Source: Candidatus Poribacteria bacterium | GTDB lineage: Bacteria; Poribacteria; WGA-4E; PCPOR2b | Reading direction: 5' to 3' | Length of the DNA stretch: 64,000 nt | NCBI GenBank assembly: GCA_965116925.1 | Contig: OZ220744.1 | Span: forward strand, 4,128,001-4,192,000 | Part shown: positions 18,001 through 24,000 of the stretch, piece by piece | Layout: every line of letters begins with the position of its first letter | How positions within the stretch are numbered: the stretch's first letter is position 1 | Position numbers: made by a program

Positions 18001-21000
18001 GAACATCCATGCTAAAGGGGACGAAAATTATGTCAACCCTTTCGCGTGCTTGGTCTATCTCTTTCGCAATTCACCTCGGTTTTGCTAGTGTCATTGGAAG
18101 TGTCATTGGAGGGTATTTGGTAACACAGAACCAATCATTCAAGGAGTTGACAGGCGTTGAAATCCCTCAAACAGTGAATACGCCGCCCAAACCGCAAGTT
18201 CAGAAACCCGTCATCAAACTCGTTCAAAAGCCGGAGGTGCCAATTGAAAGCACGGTCACCGTTGAACCGGTTAAAGTCCAACAAAGAACGATGAATATGG
18301 CCATGATTGGGGCAAGTACTGTCCAACCGCAGACCATCTCCGCGTTCTCAAATCAAGCCTTGAAACTTAATGCCCCCCTCAACCCCAATGTGCCGGAGGT
18401 GGTCGACCCCAATGCACCTATGCCTCAGAGTGTAGCACCTACGGATGACCCCGCTTCTAATGCACCCGACGCGCTAACATTGTCTTCACCCGTCGTCATA
18501 GGCACAGGTAAAAACGGTGATCGCGTGAGCCGTGGGGTTGCTGGTTCTGGGGGTATTGGCACAGACAGTGGTAGCGGCGTTGAGCGTGGTGATTTCAGTT
18601 TAGGAAATGATGTGAATCAGGCCCGTACCAGAGGTCATGTTGGCATAGGTTCATTGGTAGGCACCCAAGGGGCAACTAACATTGATGACACGCTTTCCAA
18701 TGTCACCGAGAAGGTAGTATTGGGCGGGGGTGTGCCTGAACTTCCATCTGGAAGCCCCGGTGCTATTGTTGTGGGGCGTGGTCTAGATATGATGGGCCGC
18801 TTAAACCTTGCCCGCTTTGAAAATCCGCTTCACCCCTTTGGAGTTGTATGTGGCAGCGGCGTCGGATATTTCCGATTTGGGGCAGGTTTGTCCTATTTAG
18901 TACAATCACTGAATCAAAAGACTAAAATCAAGACCCAACTTGTTGAGGCAGTCCAACTCAAGGATGCGGCACTCTTTCAGACACCGATTCTTTTTATGGA
19001 ACCGATGCCCGGCGGCTCAAAGATAAGTTCAGAACACGAGAAGGAACTGTTCTACTCTCATGGCAATCCAATATGGAATACTGCGCGTAGTAAATACACG
19101 GATGCTGAAGTCCAAAGACTACGGGAGTATGTGATTAATCGTGGGGGATTCGTTTATATAGCGACGCATGGAAATACAGATAACGCAATGAAAGGGACAA
19201 GAAAGGTGTTGCGGGACCTCCTGCCAGAGCATCAACTTGGTCTTATTCCCAATGATCACCCGATTTACAACAGTTATTACTCGCTAAATGGTCCTTTGCG
19301 TTTTCCGCTGCGCAAGATCGGAGCTTTCGGAGCTACCATCTCTCTTCACTTTGGTCCTTACTCCGAGCTACAAGGTATCACGATTGATGGTCGTCTTGCT
19401 GTCTTGGTTGATACCGAGCAGATGATGCATGTGATCGATGGCAAAGTTCAGAAACCCTTCTACGGCAAGTTCCAAAATCAGAATCAGATTTTAGAGGAAT
19501 TTGCCCCCCACGCGGCGCGGCACATGATTAACATTGTGGTCTATGCCATCACACATGGGAATATTTCAGATTACTCCGGTTATGTGCCAGCAGATAAGCG
19601 AGAGCAGCAAAGATTTCCAACCCGTGCGCCGCAAGCCGCAGCAATTAGAGCGGTTGAATAACAGCCCTGAAAGATGTGAAGATAGTAACCTATAGTGAAT
19701 TCTAAAAATAATAGGACTTACGCACTTCAGTAGGGAACGCAGATCTGCGTTCCCTACGAACCCCTTATGGAATCTCTGTTGTAGTTACCCGATTCATCGG
19801 GCGTTGGGACGAGTGTGCAGAGGCGATAAATCGCCGAACTACAAAACGTTGAGCATTCAACTGCGTAACTCCTAAATAAATAAACATTTTCGCCCCTCGG
19901 TTTCGATCCCCCCGATAAATCGGGGTAAACTAATTATCGGGGCCGGTAGGTGCGGTTTTCAATCGCACCGGTTTGGAGTGTCTCAATAATTCTAAATCGG
20001 ACTTTAGCATGTGGTAGTATGTCAAAAACCAACTATTCGCTTTAAGGAGGTTATCCTCATGAAATCTCACCACAAGTACCGCTTCTGGTTCGTTTCTGTA
20101 TTGGTCCATTTATGCCTTGCGATTGTCTTCAGTGTCGCCATCATCAATCAAACGACTCCGAGTGATGTTGATACTTTAGAAGTGAGTATTCTACAAGTTA
20201 AACCGGTGCCGCTTGTAAAGAAAACACCCCGTATAGAGGCACCTATTGTCACGCCGACACCAGTGCCTAAGTTTCAAATTGAACCTCAGTCAACGTCAGT
20301 ACAGACCCGAACGCTCACAACCCGTCAGGTGAGATCTACGTCCGTATCTGTACCGAAAGCCGCAGCGGTGGATGCCCCGGTATCTCAGTCTCCGGCACAA
20401 TCTGTGCGTGCAGAAATTTCTGTCCAAAGCGCATCTCAGGTCAATGACCGTCCCGCTCAATCACTTGCCACTGCTGTTGATCTCCCTGTTCAGTCGGATG
20501 CCCCGTTAGCGGCAGGATTGAGCGAGGGGAGTTCGCTCTCTGGCGCAGGCAGTCTTGGCGGAGGTAGTGGTAGTGGGGTTGGACGGGGTTCCTTCGGTTT
20601 AGGAGGTGGTGTGAGCCAAACCCCGACTAGAGGAGGAACGGGTTTAAGTTCGCTGGTCGGTGCTGAAGGCGCGTCTAACATAGACGACACACTTGCCAAC
20701 GTTACCGAAAAGGTAACGCTAGGGGGTGGTGTGCCTGAGCTTCCTGCTGGCAGTCCTGGTGCTATAGTTGTGGGTCGCGGTCGAGATATCATGGGTCGCT
20801 TAAACCTTGCTCGTTTTGAAGATCCGCTTCACCCAAGCGCAGATATATGAGGCAGCGGCGTCGGAAATTTCCGATTTGGGGCAGGTCTGTCCTATTTAGT
20901 ACAATCACTGAATCAAAAGACTAAAATCAAGACCCAACTTGTTGAAGCGGTCCACCTGAAAGATGCATCGTTCTTTCAGACACCGATTCTTTTTATGGAA

Positions 21001-24000
21001 CCGATACCCGGCGGCTCAAAGGTAACTCCAGAACATCGGAAGAGAGTGTACAATTCCCACAGGATTCCGATCTGGAATACTGCGCGTCCGGGTGGATTAA
21101 GTAAGTACACTGACGCTGAAGTCCAAAGATTGCGAGAATATGTGATCAATCGTGGCGGATTCCTCTATCTAGCAACGCACGGGAATGCGGATAACGCAAT
21201 GAAAGGGACAAGAAAGGTGCTGCGGGACCTCCTGCCAGAGCATCACCTCGGCTTTGTTCCAAATGATCACTCGATTTACAACGCCTATTACTCGCTAAAC
21301 GGTCCTTTGCGTTTTCCCCTGCGCACTATTGGGACTATCGGACATCTCATCCCTCTTCACTTTGGTCCCTATTCCGAATTGCAAGGTATCACGATTGATG
21401 GTCGTCTTGCTGTGTTAGTAGATACCGAGCAGATGATGCATGTGATTGATGGCAAAGTTCAAAGACCTTTCTACGGCAAGTTCCAAAATCAGAATCAGAT
21501 TTTAGAGGAGTTTGCACCCCACGCGGCGCGGCACCTAATCAATGTTGTCGTTTATGCTATCACACATGGGAACATTTCGGATTATAGCAACTACGTTCCT
21601 GAAACACTTAAAAACTCTGGTGATGATAGTTATCGTAAAAAAGCCCCAGTTGTCACACAGAAATTGTAAGTTGCTGTTCAAACGTCAAACAAGGTTAGGG
21701 AAAAATTGAAAGAGTTGCACGATTTGTCAACAGGCGAATTTTGAAAGGAGGAAGCGGTATGTTTATCTAGCACTATTGAATAAACATACGCACAAATTGT
21801 TATGATGAATTTAATCCGTTATACTTATCCCATTTTTTTTGGTGTATTTCTGTTCGCCTTTTTTATCGGTTGTGGTGATGATGATGACGAGGTTGTTGAC
21901 GTAGGTCCTGCGGTCGTATCAACGCCGGAGGGCGTGGTCAAAGGTACGATTGTAGATTTGGTAACAGAGCAGGGGATTGCGGGCATCCAAGTGACGTTGT
22001 CGTCGTCGAAAAAGTTACCGGGGGGAGATTTTGAACAGGAATCGATAGCGTCAGTCACGACGGATGGGAGTGGCAACTTCGTATTTGGCGAGTTGAAATC
22101 AGGCGAATATATAGTGAAGCTGAATGCCCCGGGTTACTTGGACCAACAAGCGTCGGTAACGGTGACACGTAAAGAGTCAGCGACGGTTCATTTTCGCCTT
22201 GAACCGGGTGTGAGGTTTAAGGGTACAGTCGTATCGGACGATGGAAATGCAGTCTCCAATGTTCTCATCACTCTGGGTGACCGTGCGTCGGTGACCAAGG
22301 GTGGTGGTCAATATGAGATATCGCCTGTATCGAAGGGCGTGTACAACTTGACAGCGGAAAAGCCGGGTTATCAGACGACGCATATACCGGGTCTAGTTGT
22401 AGGTGATAATGATATTTCCCAAAAGGTCACGATTCGTCGTCAAGTAAGGGGTCAGATAGTTTTCGCTCGTGGTGATGTAGCGGGCAAGGACTTTTTTGGT
22501 ATTTCAGTGATAAATGCGGACCGTACGGGTGAGAAGCCGCTGACGCACCTATTCGACGTTAATCCGTCGTGGTCGCCGGGTGGCAATGAAATAGTGTTTA
22601 GTCGTTCAGAAGCCAACCGTCCGTTCCAAATCTATATAATGGACAGCGGTGGTGGGAACGCCAGACCCATCAGTGGGGATCACTTCAATGATAGACATCC
22701 AGCGTGGTCACCCGATGGTCGTCGTCTAGCGTTTGTTCATGCACGTGCGTTGGGTCAACCTGCGGTTTACACGATGGATTCAAATGGAGACAATCGTGTT
22801 CGTCTTGCGGATTGCCATGCGGATTCCCGTCCAGCGTGGTCACCCGACGGTAGTCAGCTTATCTATAACCATGCGCTTAAGGAAGGGATTCGTAATCTTT
22901 TTGTGTTGGACATAGAGACATTTCTCGCCGCCAAGGAGGCACCTCCTACCCAAGTCATACCAGAACCGGAACCAGAACCGGAACCAGAGATAGTGCCGGA
23001 ACCAGAACCAGACCCTGAACCAGAGGTAGAACAAAAGCCGGAACCGGAGCCAGACCCGCATCAAACGCCGGATGGGGAGAAAGATAAACAGGAAGGTGAG
23101 GGTGATCCGCCTCAAGCACCGAGTGCCGATCCACCAGCCATAGAAGAGGGTATTCACCGTTTGACAACGAGTACGCACCACGATATCCACCCGGATTGGA
23201 GTCCAGATGGTTCAAAATTGGTGTTTACCAAGGAGAGTGCGCCGCTGAACGCTGCGGTGTATGTTCTGGATCTGTTTTCGCTGGTTCAGACCCGGTTGAC
23301 GGGTGAGGAGGGTTACAACGGGTATCCGTGTTGGTCTACCGATGGGACAAAGATAATCTTCAGCAGTAACCGCAACGGTAGTTTGGGTATCTGGATGATG
23401 GATGCCGATGGTAGTAATACCGCCCTTATTTTTGATGAATTGGGACAGGATGATATTATCAGCCAGCAGGCATGGCGTGAGTAAAAGGCAAATCCCATAT
23501 CTGAAACAACAACATTAGCTTTCAAACCGAAGCGTCGCTGTTTAGCGGCGCTTTTTGGGTTTTATGGCAATCCAATCTAGCGACCCGTAGCACCTTAATC
23601 AAAGGATAAGCCCAATTCAAGGCGTATCATCATTTCACTTACACAAGGGTTTCTTGGAAAATTGGTAGACCACCTTCCTTTGCTCAACACGTTAGGCAAA
23701 TCAACTTTTATCCATTGAGGAACGTTCAGGGAAATACTGTACAGCACTTGGGACATTGTTCATTGTGCATTGACAAATCTACAGCATTTTGGGATAATCT
23801 TCTATCTTTGATTGATCGACTAAGAGGAGGTTACCGTAATGCAAACACCCGATTTTGCTAGGACAGATTTCAGCCAGTTGGTGGATAAGGATCTGCAATT
23901 CCTGATTGAGAGTTTCCCCAAGCCGGGGCGGAGCTATGAAGAGATTGCTCAGTTGATCCATCATCTACCGAGAACGCTTGAATCTATGCTAAACAGTGAA

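Follow-up and report, generated by a model that had tools for sequence, protein, structure and literature searches.

The gene at 20059-21669(+) in the 64,000-nucleotide stretch of Candidatus Poribacteria DNA analysed here (the window) almost certainly encodes a selenoprotein, a membrane-anchored protein of sponge-associated Poribacteria that, judged by its sequence, adds a new selenoprotein family. When TGA is read as selenocysteine (Sec, U), the region forms a single 536-aa frame with a sole TGA at 20848-20850 (U264), in agreement with an earlier note that had described it as one gene. Our preferred account of the locus combines a real Sec gene, a hairpin (H2) that acts as its SECIS, a reactive centre at U264 and the fusion of a duplicate to a sigma factor in genus g1, and we regard this combination as fairly probable. 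The start ATG is preceded by a Shine-Dalgarno sequence, AAGGAGG (20044-20050), which is part of a conserved leader region (20019-20050(+)) whose 20-nt motif is found within the window upstream of two Sec genes only. The second of these, already reported in the earlier note, is confirmed at 41023-42642(-) as a 539-aa frame that is 86% identical to the first, with its TGA at 41842-41844 (U267) and the two downstream hairpins, H1 and H2, at 41817-41832 and 41798-41815.

That U264 is a real selenocysteine codon is almost certain on comparative grounds. The genome has a tRNA-Sec gene (76.6 bits against a cut-off of 47; called SeC, anticodon tca, by ARAGORN) together with selB (373 bits), selA (607 bits) and selD (369 bits), the last of which itself contains an in-frame TGA. 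UGA264 is almost certainly recoded by the host SelA, SelB, SelD and tRNA-Sec. A general reassignment of TGA is not indicated, since TGA closes 20 of the 41 long open frames in the window. A census of 176 genomes of the phylum at E<=1e-100 gave 101 matches of the gene's class (class III, defined below) in 77 genomes. Exactly one TGA is present in 85 of these matches, from 75 genomes that belong to families f1 and f4 and to 8 of 31 genera, a smaller number than the roughly 100 genomes claimed earlier; in family f4 the gene occurs in 54 of 112 genomes. The TGA occupies a single column in all 30 TGA-bearing genes aligned, within the motif HP[SN]xDI-U-GSG[VI]GxxRFGAG, and this common column, together with strong amino-acid conservation on either side, excludes a chance TGA. 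Two aligned genes that lack the TGA have Cys in its column, as do two unfused copies without TGA (G048 and G044, rows L076 and L077), and 12 full-length database homologues have Cys at the Sec site with continuous sequence through it. Cys is also found in P0124, the sister lineage to all other class III sequences in the tree. The proposal that DUF4159 constitutes a new selenoprotein family holds up as well: we found no literature record of a DUF4159 selenoprotein, the name having surfaced solely in the Pfam paper, and no NCBIfam model matching the Sec protein. Additionally, the family table of a 2026 review (PMC13188914) contains neither PF13709 nor the words "sigma" or "sensor", with BSepDB table S2 lying outside this comparison.

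Two hairpins, one directly after the other, lie downstream of the TGA. The first, H1 (20860-20875(+); GUCGGA-AAUU-UCCGAU, 6 bp, loop AAUU, -6.3 kcal/mol), is the hairpin that the earlier note had raised as a possible SECIS; it is present, but it is equally retained in Cys forms and hence is not Sec-specific. H1 may merely encode conserved residues or serve as a compact spacer. The second, H2 (20877-20894(+); UGGGGCA-GGUC-UGUCCUA), which that note did not mention, is the proposed recoding signal, a putative SECIS of canonical type. The bacterial SECIS model, as given in an excerpt of PMC13188914, calls for a loop of 3-9 nt, a stem of 4-16 bp, a G in the first two loop positions, a spacing of 16-37 nt and an MFE of <= -7.5 kcal/mol, and H2 agrees with it on every count with its 4-nt GGUC apical loop (20884-20887), 7-bp stem, 33-nt spacing after the TGA and -7.7 kcal/mol. 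The 12-nt core of H2, GGGGCAGGTCTG, is unaltered in 33 of 33 distinct Sec sequences and altered in 7 of 9 distinct Cys sequences, which exhibit five different variants including the loops GGUU and GGAC (Fisher p=1.3e-6, a value that counts related sequences and is uncorrected for phylogeny). Synonymous constraint within the gene is strongest at H2. The codons CGA, GGG, GCA, GGT and CTG do not vary among 30 of 30 genes despite protein identities down to 48%, invariant codons make up 5 of 14 within the 21 codons after the TGA versus a fraction of 0.02 of the other 171 conserved degenerate columns (Mann-Whitney p=0.0036), and the lowest-entropy windows of the entire Sec gene all fall at residues 257-285. 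Taken alone, H2 is a marginal fold at -7.7 kcal/mol, with the 53-nt region at z = -1.12 relative to shuffled sequences, and Rfam gave no match. The compared sequences contain no compensatory double changes in H2 and only a G-U to G-C change at one pair, so that its support comes from conservation and not from covariation. The loop with its closing pairs in the f4 genes, GCA-GGUC-UGC, is also that of the E. coli fdhF and Moorella fdhA SECIS elements.

H2 has similarities to other bacterial recoding signals. Like SECIS elements of the fdhF type, it accompanies an in-frame UGA with Cys in the paralogue's column, and it presents G and then U in a small apical loop downstream (excerpt of PMC13188914); the decay of an apical-loop signal in Cys forms is likewise described for [NiFeSe] group 4 hydrogenases (excerpt of PMC13582414). 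There are also differences. In E. coli, 11 nt separate the UGA from a 17-nt minihelix, whereas here the loop begins 33 nt after the UGA with a 16-nt hairpin in between, which places it about 14 nt farther away than G23/U24 of fdhF (excerpt of PMC8659212). Unlike fdhF-type selenoproteins, the present case has no bulged U and no partner Cys (neither CxxU nor UxxC), and its host domain is one of no known function.

Sequence and model predictions show the product as a type II membrane protein with a 10-residue cytoplasmic N-terminus, a single transmembrane helix (residues 11-29) with a conserved S-x3-H, a Pro-rich, low-complexity linker and an outward-facing DUF4159 domain at about residues 215-536. 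The protein has one hydrophobic segment with three K/R before it and none after it, and Pfam recognizes DUF4159 at residues 349-500 (63.3 bits, cut-off 25.9); the earlier description of a single membrane-anchored DUF4159 protein is accurate. The domain is predicted to have a class-I-glutamine-amidotransferase-like (ThuA-like, GATase1-like) fold. An AF2 model (pTM 0.84, with the Sec loop at model residues 41-60 of low confidence, pLDDT 55-63) superposes best on PDB 4i66 (Z 18.9, rmsd 2.9 A over 191 residues), with ThuA-like and GATase1 chains ranking next (Z 7-8.7), although a profile comparison with the genome's own GATases gave no match. The protein of 4i66 (Hoch_4089) is a solved member of DUF4159 (PF13709).

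Three classes of DUF4159 proteins differ in the position of their thiol. Class I has a Cys after strand 4 in 22 of 23 sequences, class II has one where the loop that follows strand 1 begins (7 of 7), and class III, which includes the Sec protein, has Sec or Cys within an insertion in 40 of 40 and a His (H374) at the elbow, where other DUF4159 proteins have the strand-4 Cys. As previously noted, the Sec/Cys site lies inside an insertion; the class I paralogue at 37301-38842(-), a 513-aa protein 34% identical to the Sec protein, has the same type of anchor and keeps HDLSDWW, MTGHN, FDDCG and NSHE but lacks the loop insertion. The Sec is the sole Cys-type residue of the Sec protein outside the membrane. 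We infer that membrane-anchored DUF4159 proteins each act by means of a single thiol. In the common class this thiol would be the FDDCG Cys just past strand 4, at the nucleophile-elbow position of the fold, while in class III, where His (ATHGN) takes the place of that Cys, the Sec or Cys would instead be supplied by a Gly-rich insertion of 10 residues that follows strand 1. Going by the fold topology, the Sec would be close to the elbow. The active site, at the C-terminal edge of the sheet, would have been remodelled with U264 as its reactive centre. The selenol, outside the cytoplasm, would be redox-active or nucleophilic rather than an anti-sigma switch; the main alternative is that it ligates a metal. 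Class III differs from 4i66 and common DUF4159 proteins in its four insertions, the loss of the FDDCG Cys and the new loop that carries Sec or Cys; 4i66 has neither the elbow Cys nor the insertion Cys. A class I glutamine-amidotransferase-type fold is shared with another selenoprotein, the CTP-synthase-C-terminal-related glutamine amidotransferase with a GxUxG motif (excerpt of PMC13188914). The Sec of that protein should, going by its motif, be the elbow nucleophile, whereas here the elbow is His and the loop that follows strand 1 contributes the Sec.

The neighbouring gene at 17367-19661(+), with a likely true start at ATG 17425 (MPTDRNL..., as in database homologues), encodes a paralogue 63% identical to the Sec protein in which an ECF sigma factor (Sigma70_r2 and r4_2) is fused N-terminally to one transmembrane helix, a linker and a class III DUF4159 domain with a Cys (Cys495) opposite U264; the sigma fusion and the Cys agree with the earlier note. 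The claim that this paralogue class always lacks TGA fails in one case, as the census includes 13 sigma-fused class III genes with Cys and one with Sec (G038), all from genus g1. The fused clade is nested within the unfused g1 Sec forms (100/99 support) with G038, still Sec, as its first branch. As read from this tree, a duplicate of the Sec gene was fused behind an ECF sigma factor in genus g1 and later exchanged Sec for Cys. In that genus the state of the domain is probably coupled to release of a membrane-tethered sigma factor. Two ECF sigma factors, SCO4117 (ECF52) and IutY (ECF243), resemble the fused paralogue, and only it, in having sigma2/sigma4, a membrane span, a Pro-rich outer region and an outer globular domain, and their activation by proteolytic release is described or proposed (excerpt of PMC8999054). 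They differ in that the paralogue has no detected zinc-finger or anti-sigma-like segment, its outer domain is DUF4159 and the G038 form contains selenocysteine.

The earlier note had gone further and read the Sec protein and its fused paralogue as one transmembrane module of the sigma/anti-sigma type, with DUF4159 as sensor and Sec/Cys as a redox- or metal-reactive switch controlling the sigma factor. The fusion does adjoin the Sec gene, G038 does combine sigma factor and Sec in one polypeptide, class II DUF4159 proteins are often sigma-fused too (4 of 7 sequences have 697-756 aa, and P0119 has Sigma70 domains), the ECF precedents point the same way, and an HtrA-like protease is encoded between the two Sec copies. 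However, the fusion is restricted to g1 and nested inside Sec forms, and no class III sigma-fused paralogue (E<=1e-100) accompanies the Sec gene in 54 f4 genomes or in genera g3, g5, g6 and g7. No sigma-factor domain was detected in the flanking ORFs scanned at the 5 loci examined (E<=1e-10); this held for 3 of 3 f4 loci, over roughly 4-5 kb per side. Furthermore, the two genes in the window are separated by about 400 nt with high-copy repeats, and the leader motif precedes the Sec genes only. In the unfused Sec protein only 10 residues precede the transmembrane helix, which leaves no cytoplasmic domain that could hold a sigma factor, and there is no anti-sigma domain; we rejected this protein as an anti-sigma factor. 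A shared module is thus unlikely, and the idea of a sigma factor with a Sec sensor, kept alive by G038, holds at best for one genus.

Less likely still is that the protein is a transducer like TonB or TolA, with the anchor docking in a proton motor of the ExbBD/TolQR type that moves or energises the selenol-bearing DUF4159 head so that it acts on a partner in the envelope, for instance the neighbouring TolB-like PD40 lipoprotein. The likeness consists of a short N-terminus, a helix with S-x3-H and a Pro-rich linker: across 14 aligned sequences His17 never varies and Ser13 hardly does, the pattern [S/A]-x3-H occurs in 26 of 36 family members (most others being fragments), and S-x3-H recurs in the TonB_C protein of this genome. 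The family profile has one other PDB sequence match in which the anchor is aligned, E. coli TonB over its S-x3-H helix and Pro-rich linker, but this match is not significant (E 0.48). An anchor HMM ranks the genome's TonB only 19th (E 1.2), behind five VWA proteins and one PA14 protein with the same anchor, which may therefore be a lineage-specific tether. The Sec protein has neither a TonB_C domain nor TolA domain III, no ExbBD/TolQR genes are adjacent, and Pfam finds no MotA/ExbB match among the window ORFs scanned, the nearer of the genome's two matches being about 50 kb past the window's end. PD40 proteins do lie beside both Sec copies. The first is followed by a lipoprotein with two CarboxypepD_reg domains and a TolB-like PD40 propeller (21802-23484(+)), and the second has CarboxypepD_reg and PD40 proteins downstream (39024-40754(-)) and upstream (43344-45017(-)). 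A protein of the same kind as this lipoprotein comes after the Sec gene in G035 (genus g6) as well, but the PD40 neighbour is missing in f4.

Finally, the view that the TGA is an ordinary stop between an anchor-linker protein and a DUF4159 protein lying end to end agrees with the table 11 reading (ORFs 20011-20850 and 20995-21669 in the same frame, with an ATG 48 codons downstream of the TGA) and with public gene calls, in which at least 6 of 124 representative proteins stop at the residue that precedes the TGA while others start about 20 residues past it, but is hardly credible given that the 48 intervening codons are open, as the earlier note had stated, and among the protein's best conserved, that Cys homologues run continuously across the site, that the TGA column is fixed in 30 of 30 aligned genes, that the SECIS core is conserved only where TGA is present and that the genome has the full Sec machinery.

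In the window, a PD40 beta-propeller protein (16133-17134(+)) is encoded upstream of the sigma-fused gene, and in f4 the class III Sec gene is followed by a gene for a cytoplasmic rhodanese and by pterin genes.

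Read with TGA as selenocysteine (Sec), the gene at 20059-21669(+), which codes for a membrane-anchored DUF4159 protein, is a single frame of 536 residues whose only TGA lies at 20848-20850 (U264). Translation table 11 cuts it into an ORF at 20011-20850 and another at 20995-21669; these share one frame, with 48 open codons separating them. The source genome, a single contig of 6.47 Mb, has tRNA-Sec, selA, selB and selD. The tRNA-Sec reaches 76.6 bits, above the cut-off of 47, and ARAGORN assigns it as SeC (anticodon tca); both selB (373 bits) and selA (607 bits) adjoin it, and selD (369 bits; C1:6018631-6019551) contains an in-frame TGA of its own (..KTCG-U-AAKVSP..). 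TGA is also the commonest stop in the window, where it closes 20 of 41 long open frames, and a general reassignment of this codon is therefore excluded.

A census of close relatives (E<=1e-100) across 176 genomes of the phylum located the gene in 77 genomes from 8 of 31 genera, these being the source genome, 22 of the 28 other genomes of its family f1 and 54 of the 112 genomes of family f4. Exactly one TGA is present in 85 of the 101 matches to this DUF4159 subfamily (class III), which are spread over 75 genomes. The 16 matches that have no TGA comprise 13 genes fused to a sigma factor, all from genus g1, two unfused copies with Cys at the site (G048 and G044, loci L076 and L077) and one fragment that ends short of the site. 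When 32 loci were aligned, the TGA of all 30 TGA-bearing genes fell into one column within the motif HP[SN]xDI-U-GSG[VI]GxxRFGAG, and the two TGA-less genes (a paralogue from the source genome and locus L056) have Cys in that column. Cys is also found there in 12 full-length database homologues, both unfused (~540 aa) and sigma-fused (~740 aa), and the Cys homologues include P0003-P0038 and P0124. An in-frame UGA that is fixed at one position and flanked on both sides by coding conservation is a mark of a selenoprotein gene, and it is what this family displays. Scores above cut-off for selB were obtained in 167 of the 176 genomes and in 73 of the 75 that carry the gene, the other two being 81% complete; this distribution is consistent with Sec use, and since selB occurs in nearly all genomes its co-occurrence with the gene does not discriminate. 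The proposal of an earlier note that the TGA in this 536-residue frame encodes Sec is upheld by the single alignment column, the aligned Cys homologues, the full machinery and a conserved core of SECIS type, and we regard 20059-21669 as almost certainly a genuine selenoprotein gene.

The window contains a second Sec copy at 41023-42642(-), with 539 residues, U267 and 86% identity to the first, as well as a Cys paralogue at 17367-19661(+) that is 63% identical to the Sec gene over the common part, has Cys495 opposite the TGA and carries Sigma70_r2 and Sigma70_r4_2 domains at its N-terminus. The true start of this sigma-fused gene is probably ATG 17425, as judged from sequence, with database homologues beginning MPTDRNL. 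An AAGGAGG sequence precedes the ATG of the Sec gene at 20059, and 18 related genes share this start region. Public gene calls cut the Sec gene in two: among 124 representative proteins, at least 6 stop exactly one residue before the TGA and others begin ~20 residues past it, so that these sponge symbionts are wrongly annotated at this locus. Just 5' of the ribosome binding sites of both Sec genes, at 20019-20038 and 42663-42682(-), lies a 20-nt leader motif, ATGTCAAAARCCAAYTATTC, which is absent from the rest of the window (chance expectation, 0.01 matches) and is kept across genus g1. A promoter search gave no convincing ECF-type -35/-10 assignment before the Sec genes and no common motif upstream of the sigma-fused gene. 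The two Sec genes are inverted and ~20 kb apart, and the region between them (23800-37300) holds an HtrA-like protease (33572-35338), a DDE transposase (30119-30934) and unrelated metabolic genes. The roughly 400 nt that part the Sec gene from the sigma-fused one (19662-20058) consist of high-copy repeat units of ~165 nt with many short GC hairpins. Parts of this spacer have matches at up to 229 sites of the same genome, and their depth in sponge metagenome runs is very high. In genome G052, a 180-codon class III fragment with TGA and an intact hairpin core (L044:3582-3986; G052:C1:1685343-1685759) is situated just 5' of the Sec gene, at the place taken by the sigma-fused gene in other genomes, and may be a remnant.

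Two hairpins follow the TGA in tandem. The first (H1, 20860-20875(+)) has 6 bp, an AAUU loop and a folding energy of -6.3 kcal/mol, and the second (H2, 20877-20894(+)), UGGGGCA-GGUC-UGUCCUA, has 7 bp, an energy of -7.7 kcal/mol and a loop that starts 33 nt past the TGA. The bacterial SECIS model, as excerpted from a 2026 review (PMC13188914), calls for an apical loop of 3-9 nt, an upper stem of 4-16 bp, a G within the first two loop positions that is usually followed by G or U, a distance of 16-37 nt from UGA to loop and a minimum free energy at or below -7.5 kcal/mol. H2 agrees with this excerpted model on every point, and H1 departs from it in both loop G and energy. What singles out H2 is a synonymous-site test together with the natural control that the Cys forms provide. 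Codons CGA, GGG, GCA, GGT and CTG are invariant across 30 Sec genes whose protein identity falls as low as 48%; counting conserved, degenerate columns only, invariant codons make up 5 of 14 columns in the 21 codons past the TGA versus a fraction of 0.02 among the other 171 (Mann-Whitney p=0.0036), and the windows of lowest entropy in the Sec gene are all at residues 257-285. The 12-nt core GGGGCAGGTCTG is unaltered in all 33 distinct Sec sequences and altered in 7 of 9 distinct Cys sequences, among which there are five variants including the loops GGUU (three sequences) and GGAC (one); this gives a Fisher p of 1.3e-6 with related sequences counted as independent. The pairs of H1, which the earlier note had put forward as a possible SECIS, are kept in 27 to 33 of the 33 Sec forms and likewise in all 9 Cys forms, and that role passes to H2, which is probably the SECIS of the Sec gene. 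An argument of this kind, that the loop G decays in Cys forms, has been applied to [NiFeSe] hydrogenases, as far as the excerpt of PMC13582414 describes it. No double compensatory changes were seen in H2, an Rfam scan of 20780-20980 at E<=10 gave no match, and by single-sequence folding the hairpin region folds no better than shuffled sequences (z = -1.12). An outer stem (P1) that encloses both hairpins in some single-sequence folds was discarded, as one of its pairs forms in just 19 of 33 sequences.

The loop and closing pairs of H2 correspond to the apical part of the E. coli fdhF element. In fdhF the 17-nt minihelix starts 11 nt past the UGA and, relative to its G23/U24, the H2 loop is ~14 nt farther from the UGA, according to the excerpted part of PMC8659212. 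H1 fills exactly this extra space between UGA and loop, where it may act as a compact spacer. Such a tandem, a Sec-independent hairpin and then a GGUC SECIS at 33 nt, offers a natural case for the spacing rules of SelB recoding. The SECIS of selD in the same genome has a GUUG loop ~20 nt past its UGA, unlike the GGUC loop at 33 nt of the DUF4159 genes.

The Sec protein has a single hydrophobic segment (residues 11-29) with three K/R before it and none after it. This asymmetry, along with the fact that the sigma domain of the fused paralogue must stay cytoplasmic in a protein with one transmembrane (TM) segment, places the DUF4159 domain outside the cytoplasm, where U264 is the only Cys-type residue. 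The domain matches Pfam DUF4159 (PF13709) with 63.3 bits against a cut-off of 25.9. An AF2 model of residues 215-536 has a pTM of 0.84 and a mean pLDDT of 78, with the Sec loop uncertain (pLDDT 55-63). The structure closest to it is that of the uncharacterised DUF4159 protein 4i66 (Foldseek E 2.3e-10, Z 18.9), and the next are ThuA-like, glutamine-amidotransferase and IFT52 chains of moderate likeness (Z 6-8.7); the fold is therefore class-I-glutamine-amidotransferase-like. Profile comparison of the family with the glutamine amidotransferases of the same genome gave no link (Prob 0.13). A catalytic class I glutamine amidotransferase was rejected, as the elbow reads ATHGN, the later motif, NDH[S/P], lacks a Glu, and the Cys-His-Glu triad is absent.

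The DUF4159 proteins aligned form three classes, which differ in where the Cys-type residue is found. Class I (~490 aa), to which window gene 37301-38842 belongs, has HxLSDWW after strand 1, MTGHD after strand 3, FDDCG after strand 4 and NxHE, and 22 of 23 of its sequences have a Cys after strand 4. Class II is often sigma-fused and lacks that Cys, with a Cys at the start of the strand-1 loop in 7 of 7 sequences. Class III has a 10-residue insertion with Sec or Cys in 40 of 40 sequences, along with FMEP, an elbow ATHGN that contains H374, and NDH[S/P]; its invariant residues H374, H404, H461, E314, D455 and D464 would fit a catalytic or metal site. The nucleophile of GATase1 enzymes sits after strand 4, and judging from the order of secondary structure in the model and from knowledge of the fold, the strand-4 position of DUF4159 would correspond to that nucleophile site. 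The working residue of DUF4159 proteins would then be a single thiol or selenol at the sheet's C-terminal edge, one that class III would have shifted to a new loop and where the selenol might act as nucleophile, redox centre or metal ligand. We give about even chances to a remodelled DUF4159 site with Sec as its reactive centre.

The earlier note had interpreted these genes as a transmembrane module of sigma/anti-sigma type with DUF4159 as the sensor and Sec/Cys as the switch. The sigma-fused gene scores 61.7 bits on Sigma70_r2, 31.2 bits on r4_2 and 100 bits on TIGR02937, has one TM segment at 231-252, and so has the domains of an ECF sigma factor whose C-terminal extension spans the membrane. 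Known systems nearest to it are ECF sigma factors of this build such as SCO4117 and IutY, for which activation by proteolytic release has been shown or proposed; in SCO4117 the extension has a Pro-rich outer region, after which comes a carbohydrate-binding domain (PMC8999054, in excerpt). A maximum-likelihood tree built from 54 domains, in which class I serves as the outgroup, recovers class III as one clade (100/100), and the sigma-fused clade (100/99) is nested within unfused Sec forms of genus g1. The first branch of the sigma-fused clade is the gene of genome G038 (L078:7460-9679, contig C50), which has kept Sec: its 739 aa comprise Sigma70_r2 and r4, U466 in the same motif and an intact GGUC hairpin and core. 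The fusion is thus a late, genus-level event and the change from Sec to Cys came afterwards. P0124, which is sister to all other class III sequences, has Cys. Outside g1, no sigma-factor domains were detected in the scanned flanking ORFs of any of five loci, with matches kept at E<=1e-10. What stands of the sigma/anti-sigma interpretation is the union of sigma factor and Sec on one polypeptide in G038; against it are the absence of an anti-sigma domain and the restriction of the fusion to g1. We consider it unlikely that the Sec/Cys DUF4159 domain is a sensor for a sigma factor, in which case it would be so in genus g1 only. Equally tentative is the proposal that the selenol may be a sensing residue for oxidants, metal or a thiol-reactive compound, and that in g1 it gates an ECF sigma factor's release from its membrane tether. 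If true, the G038 protein would be the first Sec-containing precursor of a transcription factor, and its Sec the first in bacteria used for signalling instead of catalysis. The Sec protein as an anti-sigma factor (class I or ZAS) was rejected, as only 10 residues precede its TM helix and it matches no anti-sigma Pfam family at E<=0.01. The sigma-fused gene appears mosaic relative to class I gene 37301-38842, with a class III core domain and a class I-like anchor/linker start (MST.SR.W.IS.AIHL...GGYLVTQ.QSFK) and C-terminal tail (...TRAPQAAAI.AVE).

A minor alternative is that the Sec protein is an energy transducer like TonB or TolA, as it has the S-x3-H TM anchor and Pro-rich linker typical of these proteins. 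His17 of the TM helix is invariant and Ser13 is at least 90% conserved among 14 sequences, the S-x3-H pattern is found in 26 of 36 family members (the remainder being mostly fragments), and the TonB_C protein of the same genome also has it. Against this alternative, Pfam detects neither a TonB_C nor a TolA C-terminal domain in the Sec protein, and both MotA/ExbB matches of the genome are outside the window. The family profile matches E. coli TonB over anchor and linker at a non-significant E of 0.48, and when an HMM of the anchor was run against all ORFs of the genome, eight DUF4159 paralogues came first, followed by five VWA proteins and one PA14 protein (E 0.002-0.04), with TonB at rank 19 (E 1.2). 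The VWA and PA14 proteins (C1:1233407-1234567, 1718330-1720411, 286137-288218, 3767160-3768452, 1556303-1557433 and 3071920-3073488) have the same anchor of basic stretch and S-x3-H and a Pro-rich linker, joined to other C-terminal domains. By sequence, this anchor appears to be a common tether module of envelope proteins in the source organism.

Literature searches for DUF4159 as a selenoprotein family found none, with the domain name met in the Pfam paper only, and the selenoprotein literature on Poribacteria concerned hydrogenases only. The excerpted selenoprotein family table of PMC13188914 has no entry for PF13709, 'sigma' or 'sensor', literature matches listed for selenoproteins and anti-sigma factors included nothing related by title, and NCBIfam has no model for the Sec protein. 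Within these limits, and leaving aside the 111 families of BSepDB, among which it may be included, the selenoprotein family is new; as a Sec/Cys family that has a standard SECIS, it is of an already known kind. Sec and an ECF sigma factor on one polypeptide, as in G038, had no counterpart in the excerpted selenoprotein lists compared. Within the reach of the searches made, the family is limited to Poribacteria. It is a well-supported selenoprotein family (85 copies, 75 of 176 genomes) on a domain of unassigned function, in which a lone selenol is placed outside the cytoplasm on a membrane tether. Sec would mark the functional residue of DUF4159 and, set against the elbow Cys of the common class, a concrete site to probe.

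Small parts of the window occur in three metatranscriptome runs with small word shares, and the Sec gene is covered in part only. One RNA library (run X15) has a 379-nt contig of a relative that spans 20753-20885 including the TGA with 16 differences, a weak sign of transcription at most, as DNA is possible in such libraries. At three f4 loci from three genera (L069, L070 and L074 of G160, G065 and G069), the Sec gene is followed each time by a tandem rhodanese (CRIGERS), PTPS and GTP cyclohydrolase I, with a short-chain dehydrogenase next at both loci where that ORF was scanned (G065 and G069). The rhodanese was rejected as an f4 redox partner, being an ordinary cytoplasmic tandem rhodanese with no signal peptide. 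Genome G035 of genus g6 has a CarboxypepD_reg-PD40 lipoprotein 3' of the Sec gene, as does the window. The window also codes for a divergent EF-Tu-like protein of 419 aa at 14222-15481(-), which scores 260 bits on EF-Tu models with cut-offs of ~450-520, and the best EF-Tu-like match of the genome is elsewhere, at C1:5850760.
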